Source: an uncultured Bifidobacteriaceae bacterium (GTDB taxonomy: Bacteria > Actinomycetota > Acidimicrobiia > IMCC26256 > PALSA-555). From it: DNA of 64,000 nucleotides. The translations under genes and the position numbers were made by a program. Each line of letters opens with the position of its first letter. Position 1 is the first letter of the stretch. The notes under the pieces are model-generated. The model was not told where the DNA came from and did not search any database. It was given only the letters and a program-made list of their open reading frames with translations. Shown here piece by piece: positions 20,393 through 41,034 of this stretch. The stretch lies in assembly GCA_964555735.1 (NCBI GenBank), contig CAZKTS010000038.1:6929-70928 (forward strand), read 5' to 3'.

Positions 20393-21568
20393 TCAGACCG
20401 CTGCGGCGACCCGCCCACGCGTGCGCAGCTCACGCCAACCGACGAGACGCGAGGCGTCCTCGTCCCAGAGCTTCAGCCGGATCGCGCGCAAGCCGTCGCG
20501 GAACGACACCGTGGGCACGTCGGCGAAGATCGAGCTCTCGTCGTGGGCACGCTGCAGGTGGTAGTTGGGGATGCGCGCGCTGAGGTGATGGACGTGGTGC
20601 AGGCCGATGTTGCCGGTGAAGAACTGCAGCACCTTCGGGAGCTTGAGGTACGAGCTGCCGCGCAGCGCCGACGCCTCGTAGCTCCAGTCCGGCGCGCGGT
20701 CCCAGTAGGTGGTCTCGAACTGGTGCTGCACGTAGAAGAGCCAGATGCCGGCCCCCCCGGCGAGGAACACGAAGGGCACTTCGACCAGCAGGAACGCCTG
20801 CCAGCCGATGAGCAGGCACAGGCCACCCACGAGGAGCACGAGGGCGAGGTTGGTGGCCCAGACGAGGCGGCGGATCGACGCCTTGCCCGACGGGTTCGCC
20901 CAGCGCGGCTCGAGCAGCATGGCGTAGATGGGACCGAGCCCGAACATCACCACGGGGTTGCGCAGCAGGCGATAGCCGATGCGCGTCGGCCACGCCCAGC
21001 TGTCGTACTCCGCGACGGTGTAGGTGGGGACGTCACCGACGCCGCGGCGCTCCAGGTCGCCCGTGGTCGCGTGGTGGACGGTGTGCTCGTGGCGCCAGCG
21101 CGCGTACGGCGTGAACACCAGCAGTCCGAGGATCGTGCCGACGATCTCGTTGGCGCGCTTGCCCGGGAGCAGCGAACCGTGCGCGCAGTCGTGGAACATG
21201 ATGTAGGTGCGCAGCAGGAAGCCGGCGGCGGGCACTGCCAGCGCGAGCGTGAGGAAGTACGAGACCTGCAGCGAGAAGTACATCGCCACCCAGAGGCCGA
21301 CGAACGGAACGACCGAGGTGGCGAGCGCCCAGAGGCTCCGGCGCAGGTCGGGGCGGGCGTAGAGCTGCACGCAGCGCTGCCAGCACTCGGCCTTGCGGGC
21401 GCAGCCGTCGCTCAGGTGCTCGGGTGCGGGGTCGTCCGGCGTCAGGTCGTCGGGGGTCGAGACGGTGGAGTCTGGGGTGAGCGTCTGCACGGGTGAGGTG
21501 TCACCAATCGGTTGACGGGCTTGCGGGCGGGGATGCCGGCCGACGACGGTGCCCGAACGAACGGGCAT
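20393..21568 (-). CDS. membrane fatty-acid desaturase
   Basis: Three His boxes: HDCAH, HEHTVHH and HHVHH. Several TM segments. ATG 21568 is preceded by AGGGGG; an alternative GTG lies at 21490. Confidence 0.85.
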   Translation of the reverse strand: MPVRSGTVVGRHPRPQARQPIGDTSPVQTLTPDSTVSTPDDLTPDDPAPEHLSDGCARKAECWQRCVQLYARPDLRRSLWALATSVVPFVGLWVAMYFSLQVSYFLTLALAVPAAGFLLRTYIMFHDCAHGSLLPGKRANEIVGTILGLLVFTPYARWRHEHTVHHATTGDLERRGVGDVPTYTVAEYDSWAWPTRIGYRLLRNPVVMFGLGPIYAMLLEPRWANPSGKASIRRLVWATNLALVLLVGGLCLLIGWQAFLLVEVPFVFLAGGAGIWLFYVQHQFETTYWDRAPDWSYEASALRGSSYLKLPKVLQFFTGNIGLHHVHHLSARIPNYHLQRAHDESSIFADVPTVSFRDGLRAIRLKLWDEDASRLVGWRELRTRGRVAAAV

Positions 21569-21810
21569 TCGACCCCCTGCAACCGGCGGTCGGACGGCTC
21601 GAGAAAGTGTGGCTCACCGAAGCATGACAGGTTCGAATCCTGCACGCGCGTCAGCCACATCCGGTGATCGACAGCAGGCGCCCCGCCCTTGACCGGGTGG
21701 CGGGCACCGAGAACACGTTTGGCGCCCCCACGAGGCGGGCAGGACCTGGGCACGCTCGACCCCGAGCGGTTTCCACCCATACGTCCGCTCCGAACCATGG
21801 GGGCCAAGTC

Positions 21811-33927: not shown

Positions 33928-35327
33928 CGAGCCTCCGCCTGCGCCTGGCGATCGGCCTCGCGCTGCTCGCCGCACTGTCGGTCGTGGCCGTCGCCACCAG
34001 CAACTACCTCCAGACGTCGGACCGCCTCCACGCCCAGGTCGACGCGACACTGCGCTCCGACACCCGGCCGCTGGCGGGCGGCGAGGGCTCGTCGACCGCG
34101 TTCGTCGCGGCCGTGTTCTGCCAACAGATCCGCGATGGCGAGGGAGCGGTGGCGGGCTACACCGCGAAGATCACCTCGCAGCTCGGCACCTCGGTGCAAT
34201 GCTTGAACGCCGATGGCGCCGTGAGCGCCTCCATCGGCCGGGCCGATCTGCCTGCGCCGGAGGACGCGGCCGGGTCGGTCGGGAGCACCGTGGTGCTCAC
34301 CACCCAGGAGGTCGACGGGCACACCTACCGCGTCGCGTCGTTCGCGGGACCGGAGGGCGGGACGATCCGGATCATCCGCAGCCTCGCGACCACCGAGCGC
34401 GTGCTCGAATCGATCCGCGAACGGGCGCTGATCATCGGGGGAGTGGTCATCCTGCTGGCAGCTGCGCTCGGGTGGCTCATCGCCGGCTTGATCATCCGAC
34501 CGGTGGAGCGGCTCACGACGGTCGCCGAGCGGGTTGCGGCGACGGGTGAGCTCGCAGCTCCCGTGAGCACGAAGCGACGCGACGAGGTCGGACGCCTTGC
34601 GCGCGCGTTCTCGTCGATGCTCACTGCGCTCAACGAGTCGCGAAGCCAGCAGCAGCGTCTCGTGGAGGACGCGAGCCACGAGCTGCGAACGCCGCTCACC
34701 AGCCTGCGGACGAACATCGACACCCTCCGCCGCCACGAGGATCTCGATCTCGAGGTGCGCACCCGGATCCTGGAAGGGCTCGACACCGAGCTCCGGGCCC
34801 TGGGTGCCCTCACCGACGAGCTGGTCGAGCTCACGGTCGGCGCGCGGACCGAAGAGCCCGCGGAGGCGCTCGACCTCGAGCTGCTCGTCCAGCGCGCTGC
34901 GAACCTGGTCGAGCAACGCAGCGGACGGACGATCGATGTCGAGGCCACACCGAGCACCGTGGTCGCCCGGCCGTCGGCGCTGCTCCGCGCGGTGGTGAAC
35001 ATCCTCGACAACGCGGTGAAGTTCAGCCCGCCCTCCACGCCGATCGAGGTGGTGACCGGCGACGGCCGGGTCGAGGTGCGCGACCACGGCCCGGGGATCG
35101 ACGCCGACGACCTGCCGTTCGTCTTCGACCGCTTCTACCGGGCAGTGGGCGCGCGATCGCTTCCCGGCTCCGGGCTCGGCCTGTCGATCGTGCGGACCGT
35201 CGCCGAGGAGAGCGGGGGCTCCGTGCTCGCCGGCAACCACGACGCCGGCGCATTCATCGCGCTGCAGCTCCCGACGGCGGCGGCAACGAGCGACGCAACC
35301 GGAGCGGTGGTGCCCCGGCCGCGGTGA
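33924..35327 (+). CDS. sensor histidine kinase (two TM, HAMP, HisKA, HATPase_c)
   Basis: GTG 33924 overlaps the regulator stop (GTGA). H-box ASHELRTPLTSL, N-box NILDNAVKFSP, G-boxes DHGPGI and GSGLGLSIV. Confidence 0.85.
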   Translation: MTSLRLRLAIGLALLAALSVVAVATSNYLQTSDRLHAQVDATLRSDTRPLAGGEGSSTAFVAAVFCQQIRDGEGAVAGYTAKITSQLGTSVQCLNADGAVSASIGRADLPAPEDAAGSVGSTVVLTTQEVDGHTYRVASFAGPEGGTIRIIRSLATTERVLESIRERALIIGGVVILLAAALGWLIAGLIIRPVERLTTVAERVAATGELAAPVSTKRRDEVGRLARAFSSMLTALNESRSQQQRLVEDASHELRTPLTSLRTNIDTLRRHEDLDLEVRTRILEGLDTELRALGALTDELVELTVGARTEEPAEALDLELLVQRAANLVEQRSGRTIDVEATPSTVVARPSALLRAVVNILDNAVKFSPPSTPIEVVTGDGRVEVRDHGPGIDADDLPFVFDRFYRAVGARSLPGSGLGLSIVRTVAEESGGSVLAGNHDAGAFIALQLPTAAATSDATGAVVPRPR

Positions 35328-36066
35328 GGGCGACGCTCTCGACCAGCTCCTGCACGTACGGGTGCTCCGGCGTCTCCAGCACCCGGCAGGTCGGCCCGGT
35401 CTCGACGACGACACCGTCCTTCATCACCGCGACGCGGCCGGCGAGCCGCCGCGCGACCGCGAGATCGTGGGTGATGAGCACCATGCCGATGCCCGTCGTG
35501 GCACCGAGCCGGAGGAGCAGGTCGATCACTTGCGTCGTGGTCGTCGCGTCCAGGCTCGACGTGGGCTCGTCGAGCACCACGAACCGCGGCTCGAGGACGA
35601 GCGCACGTGCGAGGACCGCGCGGGCGAGCTGACCGCCGCTGCACGCGGCGGGACGCCGGTCGAGCAGCGACGGATCGAGCGCGACCGCTTCGAGGACCGG
35701 CTCGACCCGCGCCGCCACCGCGTCATCGCCGCGGCCGAGCCCGTGCACGCGAAGCGCCTGCGCGAGGGCGCGGCCGACCGAACGGCGCCGGTTGAGCGCG
35801 GTGCGTGGGTTCTGGGTCACGAGCTGCACGAGTCGCTGGTCGTGCCGCGTGCGCCGCGGCGGCAGCGTCCGCTCGTCGATCCGGACCTCGCCGGCGGTCG
35901 GGGCGGTCACCCCGGCGAGCATCCGACCAACCGTCGACTTCCCGGCACCCGACTCCCCCACGAGCGCGACGATCTCGCCGTCGTCGACCACGAGGTCGAA
36001 CGCGTCGACCGCGGCGCGGCGCTGCGCGTCGTAGCGCTTGACCAGGCCGCACGCTTCGAGCGTCAT
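35254..36066 (-). CDS. Dpp/Opp-type ABC transporter ATP-binding protein (DppF-like)
   Basis: From ATG 36066 (ATGA overlap): Walker A GESGAGKST, signature CSGGQLARAVLARAL, Walker [13 protein letters not shown]. Confidence 0.85.
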   Translation of the reverse strand: MTLEACGLVKRYDAQRRAAVDAFDLVVDDGEIVALVGESGAGKSTVGRMLAGVTAPTAGEVRIDERTLPPRRTRHDQRLVQLVTQNPRTALNRRRSVGRALAQALRVHGLGRGDDAVAARVEPVLEAVALDPSLLDRRPAACSGGQLARAVLARALVLEPRFVVLDEPTSSLDATTTTQVIDLLLRLGATTGIGMVLITHDLAVARRLAGRVAVMKDGVVVETGPTCRVLETPEHPYVQELVESVALTAAGAPPLRLRRSLPPPSGAAAR

Positions 36067-36848
36067 GCCGACGCGAGCAGCTGCTGGGTCTGCTCGTGGC
36101 TCGGGGCTGCGAAGAGCTCGTCGACCGGCGCGCACTCGACGATCCGGCCCTCGTGCATGACCGCGACACGGTCGCAGATCTGGGCGACGACGCCGAGGTC
36201 GTGCGACACGAACAGGATCGACAGCCCGAGGCGCGCCCGCACGTCGAGGAGCTCGCGCAGCACCTGCACCCGAACCGTCGCGTCCAGGGAGCTGGTGGGT
36301 TCGTCGGCCACCAGCAGGGTCGGACGGTGCGCGAACGCGGCGATCGCCACCACGAGCCGCTGCAGCTCGCCGCCCGAGAACCGGTCCGGGAGCTCGTCGA
36401 GGCGCTCGAGCACGGGCCCGAGACCGATCGCCCCGAGCGCCTCCACCAGCTCGGAACCGCCGAGGTCATCACCCAGGTACCACCGGAGCTGACGGCCGAT
36501 CGGCACCGTCGGGGTGAGCGCGGCCATCGGGTGCTGCGGGACGAGCGCGACGCGTCGACCCCGGACGCGCCGCATGTCCCGTTCGCCGAGCGCGGCGAGG
36601 TCGATCCCGTCGAGCCGCAGCTCGTCGGCGCGGAACGTCGCCGAGCGCGGCAGCAGACGGAGCAACGCGGAGCACACGCTCGACTTGCCGCTGCCGGACT
36701 CACCCACCAGGCCGAAGATCTCGCCCCGACCGACATCGAACGACACGTCGCGCACCGCGGGCACGACCGCGTCACGCCGGCCGTAGGTCACGTCCAGCCC
36801 GGCGACGCGCAGCGTCGGCGGCGTGAGCGACGCGTCCGCGAGCGTCAT
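36063..36848 (-). CDS. Dpp/Opp-type ABC transporter ATP-binding protein (DppD-like)
   Basis: Walker [10 protein letters not shown], signature [12 protein letters not shown], Walker [13 protein letters not shown]. Confidence 0.85.
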
Positions 36849-38401
36849 TCGAACGCGAGGCGCTGTGGCGCGAGCCGACTGATGCGGAGCTGCTGGCGGT
36901 CGAGCGGGCTGAGCTCGGCGCGCTGTGCGAGCGCGAGCTTCGGGTACACGGGCGGGAAGATGACCGCGTCCTCAGCGAGACGCCGGTTGAGCCGGCGCAG
37001 CGCCTCCACGCGCTCGCCGTCGTCGGACGTCTCCCAGATCGTGTCGACGAGCGCGTCCACCTCGTCGTCCTGGTACCCGCAGGCGAGCACGTTGGTGGAG
37101 CTGGCCGGTGCGATGACCAGGTAGTTGGCCGGGCCGGACGTGAAGCCGCTCTGGAACGTGTTCATCAGCATCTCGAACTCGCGCGAGAGCCACTTGTTCG
37201 ACCACGGCCCACCGGCGAGCTGCTCGATGGTGACGTCGAGCCCGGCCTCCGCCCATCCTGCCGCCAGGACCTGCGCGATGTCCTTCGCGGTCTGGCTCGT
37301 GCCGATCGTCACCGTGAACGACCGCTGCGACGTCTTCGCCTTCCGCAGAAGCCGCTTCGCGCGGTCGACGTCGGGCTCGGCCCGGTACACCGACACGCCG
37401 GGATCCCACCCGAGCTCCGCCGGGCCGATCGGACCCTGCCCGATCGTTCCCTTGCCGCCGTACACGAGCCGCAGCACACCGGCGCGATCCATCGAGTGCG
37501 CGACCGCGCGCCGGAACGCGATGTCGTCGAACGGCGGCTTCCACAAGTTGACGTAGGTCAGGACGTCGAGCGGTGCGTCCGCGAGCACGAGGTCGACGCC
37601 GTCGGCCGACTCGGCGGCGCTGAGGTTCTGGGCCGCCACGGACGTGATCAGGTCGACCTTGCCCTGTCGCAGGCTCACGAGCCGCGTGGTCGCGTCGGTG
37701 AACAGCGTGTACTGGATCCCGCCGAACGAACCCGGTGTGCCGTGATACTCGGCGAAGCGCGACATCGTGAAGCGCTGCCCGGGCACGTACTCATCGAGCA
37801 CGTACGGACCCGTGCCCATCATGGTGTCGCGCCGCTTGACGAAGTCGCGGTGCGTGATCGGCAGGTTGGTGAGGTGTGACCGCAGCAGGCCGTACGGCCG
37901 CGTGAGGAAGATCCGCACCGTCGCGTCGTCCGGAGCGTCGAAGCGGTGCACGTAGCCGACCATGTAGGTGATCCACTCACTGCCCGCTGAGAGGTCGAGC
38001 ATGTGGGCGAGCGTCGCGACGACGTCGGCGGCCTGCAGCGGGTCACCGTTGTGCCAGGTGATGTCGCGACGGATCGGGATGGTCCAGACCCGGCCGTCCG
38101 CGGAGACCTCGGGCTCGCCGGAGGCGAGGAGCGGCACCGAGCGCAGCTCGTCGTCGTAGGTGTAGAGGCTCTCCATCACCGGCTCGGCGATCCAGCGCGT
38201 GACCTCGGACCCCGAGTCGAGCGGGTTGATGTTGCTCGGCATCGCGGCGACGCCGATCTGGAGGACGCCGTCGCGCGTCCGCTCGTCGACGCGCGCCGAC
38301 GAGCTGCTCGATCCGCACGCGGCGAGGAACGCCGACGACCCACCGACGGTCAGGGCGCTCAGCGCGAGGAAGCGGCGCCGACTCAGCTCGTGCTCGCTCA
38401 T
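36845..38401 (-). CDS. family-5 (DppA/OppA/NikA-type) substrate-binding lipoprotein with Tat signal
   Basis: From ATG 38401 (ATGA overlap): MSEHELSRRRFLALSALTVGGSSAFLAAC-GSSSS (twin-Arg plus lipobox). The body is typical SBP_bac_5. The upstream 283 codons of track ORF 36845..39250 are shadow. Confidence 0.85.
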   Translation of the reverse strand: MSEHELSRRRFLALSALTVGGSSAFLAACGSSSSSARVDERTRDGVLQIGVAAMPSNINPLDSGSEVTRWIAEPVMESLYTYDDELRSVPLLASGEPEVSADGRVWTIPIRRDITWHNGDPLQAADVVATLAHMLDLSAGSEWITYMVGYVHRFDAPDDATVRIFLTRPYGLLRSHLTNLPITHRDFVKRRDTMMGTGPYVLDEYVPGQRFTMSRFAEYHGTPGSFGGIQYTLFTDATTRLVSLRQGKVDLITSVAAQNLSAAESADGVDLVLADAPLDVLTYVNLWKPPFDDIAFRRAVAHSMDRAGVLRLVYGGKGTIGQGPIGPAELGWDPGVSVYRAEPDVDRAKRLLRKAKTSQRSFTVTIGTSQTAKDIAQVLAAGWAEAGLDVTIEQLAGGPWSNKWLSREFEMLMNTFQSGFTSGPANYLVIAPASSTNVLACGYQDDEVDALVDTIWETSDDGERVEALRRLNRRLAEDAVIFPPVYPKLALAQRAELSPLDRQQLRISRLAPQRLAFE

Positions 38402-39273
38402 CCGACCTCTCCTCCTTGGCGGGCGCCCACACGGGCACCGTCGGACCCGACCAGCGAGTCGTTGAGCGAGTCGCCCAGCAGGTTGCAGGCGAGGATCCCG
38501 AGCACGAGCACCGTGCCCGGCAACGCGGCGTACCACCAGAAGCCGTCGATGATCTGCGCGCCGGCGTCGGCCACGAGGTTCCCGAGCGTCGCCTGCGGCG
38601 GTGCCACCCCGAGCCCCAGGAAGCTGAGGCCGCCCTCGGCGAAGATCGCGATCGCCATCGCCAGCAGTGCCTGCACGAGCACCACCGGCGCGATGTTCAC
38701 GGCAACGTCGCGACCGAGGATCTCGCGTGGCGGCACACCGACCGCGCGCAGCGCGAGCACGTAGTCCTGGTGCAGCTCGGTGAGCGCAGCGGCGCGGACG
38801 ACGCGGGTGAAGAACGGGAGGAACCCGATCGCCAGGCAGAAGGCGATGCGGACCTCGGTGCTGATCGAGAACGGCCCGAGCTCCGTCGTCCCCGACCCCA
38901 TGATGCTGAGCAGGAAGATGACGAGCACGAAGGTCGGGAGCGCCTGGGCCGTCTCGATCGTGCGCATGATGAGGCCGTCGGTGCGGCGACCGGCGCGCCA
39001 CGCGGCCGCGAGACCCAACGGTGCCGCGACGGCCAGCGAGAGCAGGATCGCCGCCGAGCTCACGAGCATCGAGAGCCATGCCGCGTCCGCCGTACGCGCG
39101 AGCAGGTCCCGGCCGAGGTGGTCGGTGCCGAACGGGTGCGCCCATGACGGCGACTCCGGCCCACGGGCGACGATCGCGGTCGGGTCGCCGTGGAGCTGCC
39201 CCACCGTGGCGACGAGCACGAACAGCACCGCGCACACGATCCCGAGCCACGTGACCACCCCGCTCCGTTTCAC
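38398..39273 (-). CDS. Dpp/Opp-type ABC permease (DppC-like)
   Basis: 291 aa with multiple TM segments and an EAA-like loop ...ALRAVGVPPREILGRDVAVN... GTGA overlap with the upstream gene. Confidence 0.85.
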   Translation of the reverse strand: MKRSGVVTWLGIVCAVLFVLVATVGQLHGDPTAIVARGPESPSWAHPFGTDHLGRDLLARTADAAWLSMLVSSAAILLSLAVAAPLGLAAAWRAGRRTDGLIMRTIETAQALPTFVLVIFLLSIMGSGTTELGPFSISTEVRIAFCLAIGFLPFFTRVVRAAALTELHQDYVLALRAVGVPPREILGRDVAVNIAPVVLVQALLAMAIAIFAEGGLSFLGLGVAPPQATLGNLVADAGAQIIDGFWWYAALPGTVLVLGILACNLLGDSLNDSLVGSDGARVGARQGGEVG

Positions 39274-40244
39274 GCGAACGCCTCTGTGGTCGTGACCCGA
39301 CGGGTGCGCGGGTCCACGAGCGCGCTCACGACGTCGATGACGAGGTTGAGGACCAGGAAGATCGTCGCGGTGACGACCGTCGCCCCCAGCGCGAGCGGGT
39401 AGTCACGCCGCACGAACGCGGTGACCATCAGCTGGCCGAGCCCGGGGATCTGGAAGACGTTCTCGATGAGGATCGTCCCGGACACCAGGCCGCCGAGCAG
39501 CACCCCCATCACCGCGAGGGTCGGCGTGAGCGCGTTGCGGAGCGCGATCCTCCGCACGAGGGCGCGCTCGGGCATCCCCATCGCGCGGGCGAACGTGACG
39601 TCGTCGTAGGACAGGACGTCGAGCAGGGACGCGCGGATCGAGCGCGCCACCATCGCCAGCACCGCGAGGCCGAGCACGGTCGCCGGGAGGATCATCGCCT
39701 GCAGGTTCGCCAACGGGTCCTCGGCGAAGGTGACGAACCCACCGGCGCCCGGCAGCAGCTCGGGGTTCGAGTCACCCACCAGCACGAGACAGAGGACCGC
39801 GAGCCAGTAGGAGGGGACGGAGATCGCCAGCACGGTGAGCACCCGCGTGCCGCCGTCGAGCCAGCGGCCGTGGCGGAGGGCCGCGAACGTCCCGAGCAGG
39901 AGTCCCGGCACGATCGCGACGAGCGCGGCGAGGAGCCCGAGCTCGAGCGAGACCGGCAGGCGCTCCGCGATCTGGTCGGACACCGACGAGCCGTCGTAGA
40001 ACGACGTCCCGAGGTCGCCCTGCACGAGGTCGCCCACGTACCGCCCGTACTGCACGAGGAGCGGATCGTCGATGCCGAGGCTCTCCTCGACCGCGGCGCG
40101 GGCGCGCGGGTCGGCGACGACCGCCGGCGACATCGAGTCGACCGGGCTGTCGTCGGCCGCGTGGAGCAGCAGGAACATCGCGCTGACGGAGACGAAGAGC
40201 ACGACCACCAGCGCGACCGTGCGGCGGACGACGTACCGAAGCAT
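39270..40244 (-). CDS. Dpp/Opp-type ABC permease (DppB-like)
   Basis: 324 aa. MLRYVVRRTVALVVVLFVSV... is the typical DppB/OppB N-terminus; ...FARAMGMPERALVRRIALRNAL... Confidence 0.85.
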   Translation of the reverse strand: MLRYVVRRTVALVVVLFVSVSAMFLLLHAADDSPVDSMSPAVVADPRARAAVEESLGIDDPLLVQYGRYVGDLVQGDLGTSFYDGSSVSDQIAERLPVSLELGLLAALVAIVPGLLLGTFAALRHGRWLDGGTRVLTVLAISVPSYWLAVLCLVLVGDSNPELLPGAGGFVTFAEDPLANLQAMILPATVLGLAVLAMVARSIRASLLDVLSYDDVTFARAMGMPERALVRRIALRNALTPTLAVMGVLLGGLVSGTILIENVFQIPGLGQLMVTAFVRRDYPLALGATVVTATIFLVLNLVIDVVSALVDPRTRRVTTTEAFA

Positions 40245-40276: not shown

Positions 40277-40936
40277 TCACGCGGTCACGTGCTCGAGGTC
40301 GGCGAGGACCGCGAGGTTGTGGTCGTACGCGAGGAGCATCTCCTCGACGATGCGAGTGCGCTCCTCGTCGTCCCACGGCGCGGCGTCCAGGCGCGCGCGG
40401 TAGTCGGCCTTGAACGCGGTGAGGTCGCCGAGGGCGTCGAAGTCGTAGAACTCGACGCCGACGCCGTCCTCGAGTGCGTACGCGCGCTCGACCGCGCCGC
40501 GGATCAACTGGCCGCCGGAGAGGTCGCCGAGGTAGCGCGTGTAGTGGTGGGCGACGAAGCCGCCCGGCCACGTCCAGCAGACCTCGCGGAGGCGGTCGCA
40601 GTAGGCCTCGGTGGCGGGCGACGCTGCGAACGCTTCCGGCCAGTCGGGACCGGCGAGCGCGTCCAGGTCGCGGCGCAGCGCGTCGCCTCGCTGCAGCTCC
40701 TCCACGACGAACGGCCCCGCCACGGGATCGTCTGCCATCGCCGATGCCGCGTCCTCGAGCACCCCGTAGATCGCGTGGTGCTGGGCCACCATCGCGACGT
40801 AGCTGTCGCGGTCGAGCGTGCCCACGAAGAGCGCACGGAGGAACGGCGCGCCGGCTGCCTCCTCGTGGCGATCCCACGTAGCCGCTCGGATCTGCTCGGC
40901 GAACGACGACGTCCGCGCCCCACCTGCACTGTTCAC
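40277..40936 (-). CDS. hmuO: heme oxygenase (biliverdin-producing, HmuO/HO-1 type)
   Basis: ...FAEQIRAATWDRHEEAAGAPFLRALFVG...HHYTRYLGDLSGGQLI... matches canonical HO motifs. I prefer the GTG at 40936 because GGGAG (40943-40947) lies 6 nt upstream; the track start is the ATG at 40954. Confidence 0.85.
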   Translation of the reverse strand: MNSAGGARTSSFAEQIRAATWDRHEEAAGAPFLRALFVGTLDRDSYVAMVAQHHAIYGVLEDAASAMADDPVAGPFVVEELQRGDALRRDLDALAGPDWPEAFAASPATEAYCDRLREVCWTWPGGFVAHHYTRYLGDLSGGQLIRGAVERAYALEDGVGVEFYDFDALGDLTAFKADYRARLDAAPWDDEERTRIVEEMLLAYDHNLAVLADLEHVTA

Positions 40937-40958
40937 TCGACGCTCCCGGGTCATTCAG

Positions 40959-40977
40959 TTAGGGTCACCTGACCTAA
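40959..40977. promoter_or_regulatory. DtxR/IdeR-type iron box 1
   Basis: TTAGGGTCACCTGACCTAA compared with the consensus TTAGGTTAGSCTAACCTAA: 15/19 by my count, with perfect TTAGG...CCTAA outer arms. It is an AT-rich island in a GC-rich divergent promoter. Confidence 0.6.
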
Positions 40978-40978
40978 C

Positions 40979-40997
40979 TTTGGTGAGGCTAACCCAA
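40979..40997. promoter_or_regulatory. DtxR/IdeR-type iron box 2
   Basis: TTTGGTGAGGCTAACCCAA compared with the consensus TTAGGTTAGSCTAACCTAA: 16/19 by my count. It sits 1 nt after box 1. A TAACTT -10-like hexamer (40975-40980) bridges the two boxes. Confidence 0.6.
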
Positions 40998-41034
40998 GCC
41001 TTGCGACGGCGACAGTCCACCGGGAGGACGCTCC

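Follow-up and report, generated by a model that had tools for sequence, protein, structure and literature searches.

We analysed a 64,000-nucleotide stretch of DNA (the window) from an uncultured high-GC actinobacterium, in which two abutting iron boxes of the DtxR/IdeR type occupy positions 40959-40997, between a haem oxygenase gene and a divergently transcribed gene for a surface protein. We read these positions, with a probability of roughly 80%, as a double operator for the iron-dependent regulator IdeR/DtxR, which would repress both divergent operons by promoter occlusion. The two sites are highly non-random, their scores resemble those of published sites, and relatives keep them as a pair; the flanking genes make up a coherent haem-acquisition locus. 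The two elements are:

40959-40977, no strand: iron box 1, TTAGGGTCACCTGACCTAA (15/19 consensus positions, 13.8 bits, rank 2 in the window)
40979-40997, no strand: iron box 2, TTTGGTGAGGCTAACCCAA (16/19 consensus positions, 16.8 bits, rank 1 in the window)

The pair had been proposed in a first-pass annotation of this DNA, whose box sequences and coordinates are exact as read from the window. Along 40959-40997 the order is TTAGGGTCACCTGACCTAA, then the annotated single-nucleotide spacer, which is a C at 40978, then TTTGGTGAGGCTAACCCAA. The centres of the boxes are 20 bp apart, and the pentamer phase, seen directly in the sequence, runs unbroken through both. When all 19-mers of the window, on both strands, were compared with the 19-bp IdeR/DtxR palindrome TTAGGTTAGSCTAACCTAA, the counts of 15/19 and 16/19 given earlier were reproduced (four mismatches for box 1 and three for box 2), and the best 19-mer outside the boxes' intergenic region reached 12/19 (seven mismatches). 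The IdeR genome search in Saccharopolyspora erythraea tolerated 6 mismatches, and the sites verified there by electrophoretic mobility shift assay (EMSA) have 2-3 (PMC8464063). The observation of paired boxes is therefore confirmed.

The boxes were also scored with a symmetrised position weight matrix (PWM), trained on 45 Corynebacterium DtxR sites (PMC1382209, Tables 1 and 2), of which 30 come from C. glutamicum and have expression evidence and 15 had been described earlier in C. diphtheriae. The training sites themselves score 9.7-22.7 bits, with a median of 15.4 (uniform background). Both boxes fall inside this range, box 2 (16.8 bits) above the median, and on the same uniform background they are the top two of about 64,000 window positions (z about 6). 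According to exact score distributions, the per-position chance of such scores is 4.4e-8 for box 2 and 4.7e-7 for box 1 at the 71.5% GC of the window, and 8.5e-7 and 7.2e-6, respectively, at 50% GC; at window composition, 0.003 and 0.03 hits are expected per 64 kb. The boxes are, as annotated, the sole AT-richer patch of the spacer (the 39-bp double box has 49% GC, as compared to about 71-72% in the surroundings). Measured against GC-poor random 19-mers, a comparison suggested by the first-pass annotation, they perform far better, since permutations of their own bases reached the observed score 0 times in 200,000 for box 2 and 2 times in 200,000 for box 1. The interpretation of the pair as DtxR/IdeR iron boxes is thus supported.

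Conservation in relatives points in the same direction. In a near-identical Logan contig (L013) both boxes are unchanged and single substitutions occur in the flanks. A Joint Genome Institute (JGI) metagenome contig (L007), which has a 70% identical haem oxygenase and the same gene order on both sides, importer included, carries TTAGGGTCACCTCACCATA, a G spacer and TTAGGAGAGCCTATCCAAA, so that the 1-nt spacer is kept; the two boxes score 10.5 and 17.4 bits. Window and L007 boxes are identical at 30/38 positions (box 1 at 16/19, box 2 at 14/19), as compared to 17/34, 19/37 and 10/26, or about 50%, in the flanks, which comprise adjacent coding and leader DNA. Several of the substitutions, as read by eye from the alignment, go toward the consensus or swap a permitted central G/C. 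The distance from the boxes to the GTG start codon of the haem oxygenase gene is 23 nt in L007 and 22 nt in the window. In JGI data, the two relatives nearest to the window have haem oxygenases 88% and at least 90% identical to its own.

Scans of species-representative genomes and of metagenomes gave only relatives at most 58% identical, and boxes were also looked for in more distant haem oxygenase loci. Most of the loci compared from other Actinomycetota have one box just upstream of the haem oxygenase gene. In fact, single boxes of 11.7-20.7 bits lie within about 60 bp upstream at L001, L002, L004, L005, L009 and L010/11, which include two Curtobacterium, two Microbacterium and several metagenomic contigs. 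One box nearly fills the 20-bp divergent spacer of the L015-L021 lineage, and another precedes a DUF3159-DUF2470-haem oxygenase operon (L014). In Motilibacter aurantiacus (L022), one 14-bit box lies in the divergent region between haem oxygenase and a gene of the neocarzinostatin (NCS)-like family described below. Phytohabitans rumicis (L023) has two near-perfect boxes (25.6 and 24.1 bits), 50 bp apart, in the divergent region between HtaA and an NCS-like-hmuTUV operon. No box of at least 9 bits was found upstream of the locus genes in L003, L012, L008 and L024 (Ilumatobacter). The divergent region between haem oxygenase and the NCS-like gene of L008 contains, at 2829-2862, a perfect 14-bp inverted repeat, CGACGTTCTGTCGA-N6-TCGACAGAACGTCG, which may be the operator of a different regulator.

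A few other matches were observed in the window. The one at 40954-72 (14/19, 12.5 bits) was rejected as a separate site: it is the offset-5 register of box 1 and reuses the same two good quintets, and it arises because the consensus consists of four 5-bp repeats. The same offset-5 echo is found beside the boxes at L001, L004 and L010. A weak iron-box-like site, GAAAGTGTGGCTCACCGAA, at 21603-21621 (12/19, 9.3 bits, just under the weakest training site) precedes a minus-strand gene for a fatty-acid desaturase (20393-21568) by 35 bp; considering that about 0.64 such hits are expected per 64 kb, it is probably a chance match and was rejected as an iron box. A repeat search gave no larger palindrome or repeat beyond the boxes, with only two short direct repeats that were judged trivial, and a search of 40500-41500 against Rfam gave nothing but one sub-threshold chance match.

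The position of the boxes with respect to the flanking genes depends on the start codons of the first genes of the two operons, which are:

40277-40936, minus strand: haem oxygenase of the HmuO/HO-1 type, first gene of the left operon (PF01126, E 9.7e-52)
41035-41805, plus strand: secreted 256-aa protein, first gene of the right operon (PF00960, E 1.8e-8)

The intergenic region had been given as 80 bp, which holds only if haem oxygenase starts at ATG 40954; with the better-supported GTG 40936 it measures 98 bp. GTG 40936 is the likely start, with a GGGAG ribosome-binding site six bases upstream and both elements conserved in L007. The alternative ATG lacks a ribosome-binding site, and L007 does not have it. 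The protein P0001 (219 aa, from NCBI and Logan assemblies), which is 100% identical to the window haem oxygenase, also starts at GTG 40936; public gene calls disagree on this point, giving either 219 aa or 225 aa. The 8-mer GACGCTCC occurs in both leaders (40939-40946 and 41027-41034), directly beside both ribosome-binding sites, and reads GGAGCGTC on the haem oxygenase strand. It is probably a trivial outcome of similar Shine-Dalgarno contexts.

Three TANNNT hexamers were found by eye in the spacer, and all of them lie inside the boxes:

40975-40980, plus strand: TAACTT, candidate -10 of the surface-protein operon, spanning the junction of box 1 and box 2 (read from the sequence)
40960-65, plus strand: TAGGGT, second plus-strand TANNNT, inside box 1 (by eye)
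40986-40991, minus strand: TAGCCT, candidate -10 of the haem oxygenase operon, at the centre of box 2 (by eye)

The first of them had already been pointed out in the earlier annotation, and the last is the only minus-strand TANNNT seen by eye upstream of the haem oxygenase start. Both promoters would therefore overlap the boxes. When Fe2+ is plentiful, metal-loaded IdeR, which we take as the probable binding protein, would sit on both boxes as up to two dimers per 19-bp box. The boxes would hold every plausible -10 hexamer of this short divergent region, and therefore the bound repressor would keep RNA polymerase off both promoters at once. This would switch off the leftward operon, with haem oxygenase and a Dpp-type ATP-binding cassette (ABC) importer, as well as the rightward one, with two anchored neocarzinostatin-fold surface proteins. 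When iron is scarce, IdeR without metal would leave the DNA and both operons would be expressed, so that haem could be captured, imported and degraded, releasing iron. Iron boxes that overlap a -10 or a start site repress (PMC10317159). The end of box 1 is 22 nt from the haem oxygenase start codon (GTG 40936), and therefore the box is not upstream of the promoter like the activating boxes of bfrB. The expected effect is repression and not activation.

The quintets of the two boxes were examined under the rules known for S. erythraea IdeR, each monomer of which takes one CCTAA quintet, with two dimers per 19-bp box offset by 5 bp (PMC8464063, PMC10317159). The minimal requirement of a quintet is a T at position 3 plus a C at position 1 or 2 (PMC8464063). 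By this rule, 3/4 quintets of box 1 are competent (R1, R3 and R4), R2 being incompetent both in the window and in L007. Box 2 has 2/4 competent quintets, the inner two, with CCAAA and CCCAA as near-misses. Box 1 has a conserved core, TTAGG-GTCA-CCTSA (40959-40972), which is built like an IdeR half site; in the window this core is accompanied by an extra CCTAA. Such a half site consists of two quintets with a 4-bp spacer and takes one dimer, with an affinity close to that of native full sites (apparent KD of about 78 nM for S. erythraea IdeR; PMC8464063).

Some observations weigh against a double repressor operator. Under the minimal quintet rule, one quintet of box 1 and two of box 2 are incompetent, so that fewer than four dimers may be bound. 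A strict scan for sigma-70 promoters and terminators gave no sites, and no canonical -35/-10 pair was detected; such a pair is often undetectable in high-GC actinobacteria. No ideR/dtxR homologue was found in the 64-kb window by tblastn with Mycobacterium tuberculosis IdeR as query (best E 1.6). L008, which has the same gene arrangement, has a degenerate box only (12/19, counted by eye). Lastly, according to reviews, a single box is the general case for genes repressed by IdeR, and promoters with several boxes tend to be of the activated kind (PMC10317159, PMC9132128). As far as the quintets are concerned, the published hmuO operators give the same counts under the rule, namely 3/4 for C. diphtheriae and 2/4 for C. 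glutamicum, and the pattern of box 1, with R2 alone incompetent, is that of the C. diphtheriae operator; therefore the quintet imperfections probably do not speak against function.

The two boxes might work independently, one for each divergent promoter, in which case their abutment would be a mere result of the very short intergenic region and no cooperativity would be involved. This has real weight, although we lean against it. Each of the two boxes of L023, 50 bp apart, lies beside one gene, the S. erythraea sites C10S1 and C10S2 are each nearer one start codon (PMC8464063), and in L015-21 one box suffices in a 20-bp divergent spacer. However, the distance from box 2 to the start of the surface-protein gene is about 68 nt in L007 (measured by eye) as compared to 37 nt in the window, and yet the 1-nt spacing between the boxes is kept. 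That the spacing persists despite the longer leader is therefore a hint that the spacing itself is constrained, and the continuous pentamer phase across both boxes also speaks against simple independence. The first-pass annotation had proposed that the tandem boxes would allow cooperative repression of both divergent units, and we regard cooperativity between box 1 and box 2 as no more than plausible: the spacing is conserved, and neighbouring complexes in S. erythraea IdeR-DNA crystals swap SH3 domains (PMC10317159). A smaller possibility is a compact bidirectional operator whose fixed 1-nt spacing would be needed for contact between IdeR dimers on neighbouring boxes, for example through an SH3-domain swap.

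It is rather unlikely that box 2 is the sole full two-dimer operator and that box 1 is either a half site for one dimer (TTAGG-N4-CCTSA) or a duplicate in decay with little effect; the tandem look would then exaggerate what works as one box with an accessory. In favour of this reading, box 1 has an incompetent R2 in the window as well as in L007, and in L007 R4 fails too, which leaves exactly the half-site format; the L007 box 1 scores only 10.5 bits with respect to 17.4 for box 2, and half sites are taken by S. erythraea IdeR as a single dimer (PMC8464063). On the other hand, 13/14 positions of the half-site core are conserved between the window and L007, which argues for selection on box 1. 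A half site, moreover, binds as tightly as a full native site, and box 1 of the window resembles the functional hmuO operator of C. diphtheriae in its three good quintets.

We consider very improbable the involvement of another regulator, such as a Mn-responsive paralogue of the DtxR family, or a positive action like that of the tandem boxes of M. tuberculosis bfrA/bfrB. Promoters with several boxes are typical of storage genes activated by IdeR, but here the flanking genes serve iron and haem acquisition and not storage, the boxes fit the Fe-IdeR/DtxR consensus specifically, and they are placed 22 nt from the haem oxygenase start codon and hold the only -10-like hexamers, so that they are not upstream of the promoter. 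Chance resemblance is effectively refuted: AT-richer sequence occurs in the spacer only at the boxes, and such sequence raises the number of matches to an AT-rich consensus, but the per-position chance is still about 1e-6 and 1e-5 at 42-50% GC, permutations of their own bases almost never reach the observed scores, the two hits abut, and the pair is conserved in a relative with a 70% identical haem oxygenase.

With a double IdeR/DtxR operator as the preferred reading, the genes on either side deserve a closer description. The minus-strand gene had been called a haem oxygenase, and it is a canonical one of the HO-1/HmuO type: it matches PF01126 with 176 bits (gathering cut-off 23) over model positions 2-203 of 204. 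The plus-strand gene, annotated as encoding a surface protein, does encode a secreted protein with a C-terminal membrane anchor. The other genes of the two operons are:

35254-40244, minus strand: Dpp/Opp/Nik-type ABC importer, 3' of haem oxygenase (Pfam BPD_transp_1, SBP_bac_5 and ABC_tran)
39270-40244 and 38398-39273, minus strand: permeases of the importer (BPD_transp_1)
36845-38401, minus strand: solute-binding lipoprotein of the importer, family 5, start fixed at 38401 (SBP_bac_5)
36063-36848 and 35254-~36135, minus strand: ATPases of the importer (ABC_tran)
41844-43688, plus strand: secreted protein with three neocarzinostatin-fold repeats (PF00960 x3; three domains by the family hidden Markov model, HMM)

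The importer is complete, and the junctions between its genes are tight or overlapping. The solute-binding protein is a Dpp/Nik-like lipoprotein with a twin-arginine-type signal. Nickel and opine-metal binders are what it resembles most in NCBIfam, with scores far below cut-off in every case; it may take haem, a metallophore or a peptide as its substrate. In many related loci, a DUF2470 (PF10615) gene adjoins haem oxygenase or is fused to it (proteins P0007, P0021, P0024 and others), and no such gene was seen beside the haem oxygenase of the window. The DUF2470 genes are:

L014, 2672-2968: DUF2470 gene
L015, 3648-3953: DUF2470 gene
L021, 1214-1519: DUF2470 gene
L022, 5553-5867: DUF2470 gene
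L007, 169-489: DUF2470 gene

In the product of the gene at 41035-41805, a signal peptide is followed by one neocarzinostatin-fold domain, which a Pro/Ala/Thr linker joins to a C-terminal transmembrane anchor. The AlphaFold2 model of the domain has a predicted local distance difference test (pLDDT) value of 92, and its top Foldseek matches are the macromomycin, neocarzinostatin and C-1027 apoproteins; on these and on the kedarcidin apoprotein it superposes with template modelling (TM) scores of about 0.8. At its C-terminus, the product of the gene at 41844-43688 carries a sortase-type cell-wall sorting signal of the class-E kind, made up of LAFTG, a hydrophobic stretch and RRRR. Against the enediyne chromoprotein equivalog NF040680 of NCBIfam, the window proteins score 56.6 and 70.9 bits, below the cut-off of 86.

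A search with the 41035-41805 protein alone gave one relative only. Further relatives required a profile, made from seven NCS-like domains of the window and of related loci, which retrieves 366 proteins at E <=1e-4. The named matches are annotated as hypothetical, neocarzinostatin-family or LPXTG-anchor proteins, and their sources include Phytohabitans, Natronosporangium, Motilibacter, Nonomuraea, Actinomadura, Actinocorallia, Micromonospora, Jatrophihabitans and Ilumatobacter. The alignment of the family shows a near-invariant Trp, a Tyr, a RADH motif and DRSQD. In all the DNA compared, the family HMM matches only genes within these haem loci. The secreted or anchored proteins of the family have 1-4 domains each:

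window, 41035-41805 and 41844-43688 (both plus strand, described above): NCS-fold genes
L007, 556-3176: NCS-fold gene
L008, 3-2772: NCS-fold gene
L015, 1718-2980: NCS-fold gene
L022, 2082-2768 and 3661-5516: NCS-fold genes
L023, 5001-5639: NCS-fold gene
L024, 5001-5720: NCS-fold gene

The three distant members with known context all sit in haem loci (3/3), with haem oxygenase, HmuT/U/V-type transporters and/or HtaA-domain proteins as neighbours. In L015-L019, a member with two domains is the first gene of a Peripla_BP_2-FecCD operon that runs divergently from haem oxygenase. The family shares its fold with the enediyne chromoproteins (TM about 0.8), but its recurring gene context is haem uptake. 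Gene context and a fold with a ligand cleft suggest that these proteins may bind haem. We tentatively propose, at slightly less than even odds, that the NCS-fold surface proteins of the window are haem-binding receptors at the cell surface, or hemophores, of an actinobacterial family so far undescribed, in the role that HtaA/ChtA have in Corynebacterium, co-repressed with haem oxygenase and the Dpp-type haem importer by the double IdeR operator. A literature search of limited coverage gave no paper joining the neocarzinostatin fold with haem uptake, HtaA or hmuT, which is a weak negative.

The regulatory site itself is textbook biology, in that it would bring one more haem oxygenase, from an uncultured high-GC actinobacterium, under the well-known control by DtxR/IdeR. 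It offers a clean natural example of two abutting boxes in a presumed repressed promoter, where reviews usually report one. The boxes mark both divergent operons as probably iron-regulated, and so they flag the NCS-fold surface proteins and the Dpp-type transporter as candidate parts of haem acquisition. This candidate pathway occurs in several actinobacterial orders and in the Acidimicrobiia. The surface-protein family is more novel than the boxes and is the lead most worth following.

Among known systems, the hmuO genes of Corynebacterium are the natural reference. The first-pass annotation had named hmuO as a DtxR target, and this is established in C. diphtheriae (DIP1669) and in C. glutamicum (cg2445), whose hmuO promoters are each tabulated with a single box (PMC1382209). 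The window resembles these operators in having a 19-bp iron box of similar degeneracy before a canonical haem oxygenase gene, and it would follow the same logic, in which iron represses haem utilisation. It differs in that two abutting boxes, and not a single one, lie in a divergent promoter of a high-GC, non-corynebacterial actinobacterium, and in that haem oxygenase shares an operon with a Dpp-type ABC importer.

Two IdeR boxes in one divergent intergenic region of iron-acquisition genes are also found in S. erythraea, where the siderophore promoter SACE_2689/SACE_2690 has the sites C10S1 and C10S2, both EMSA-verified and with 2-3 mismatches (PMC8464063). In contrast to that case, the genes served by the window boxes are haem genes, the boxes abut with a 1-nt spacer, and the evidence comes from the DNA sequence. 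In M. tuberculosis, several IdeR boxes lie side by side upstream of the promoters of the storage genes bfrA and bfrB and are activating, in the case of bfrB through displacement of Lsr2 (PMC9132128, PMC10317159). The window boxes, unlike these, lie on the presumed promoters of acquisition genes, so that repression is expected; no storage gene flanks them, and box 1 is 22 nt from a start codon.

A literature search on tandem, adjacent or overlapping iron boxes gave two reviews only (PMC10317159, PMC9132128). In the comparison with Phytohabitans rumicis (L023), both loci have a divergent haem-uptake promoter with two IdeR boxes and a neocarzinostatin-fold gene heading one operon. L023 differs from the window in its near-perfect boxes (24-26 bits), which stand 50 bp apart, in its partner gene, HtaA, and in its transporter, which is of the HmuTUV type. 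With its abutting boxes in a presumably repressed promoter, the window thus departs only mildly from these systems and does not show a new kind of element.

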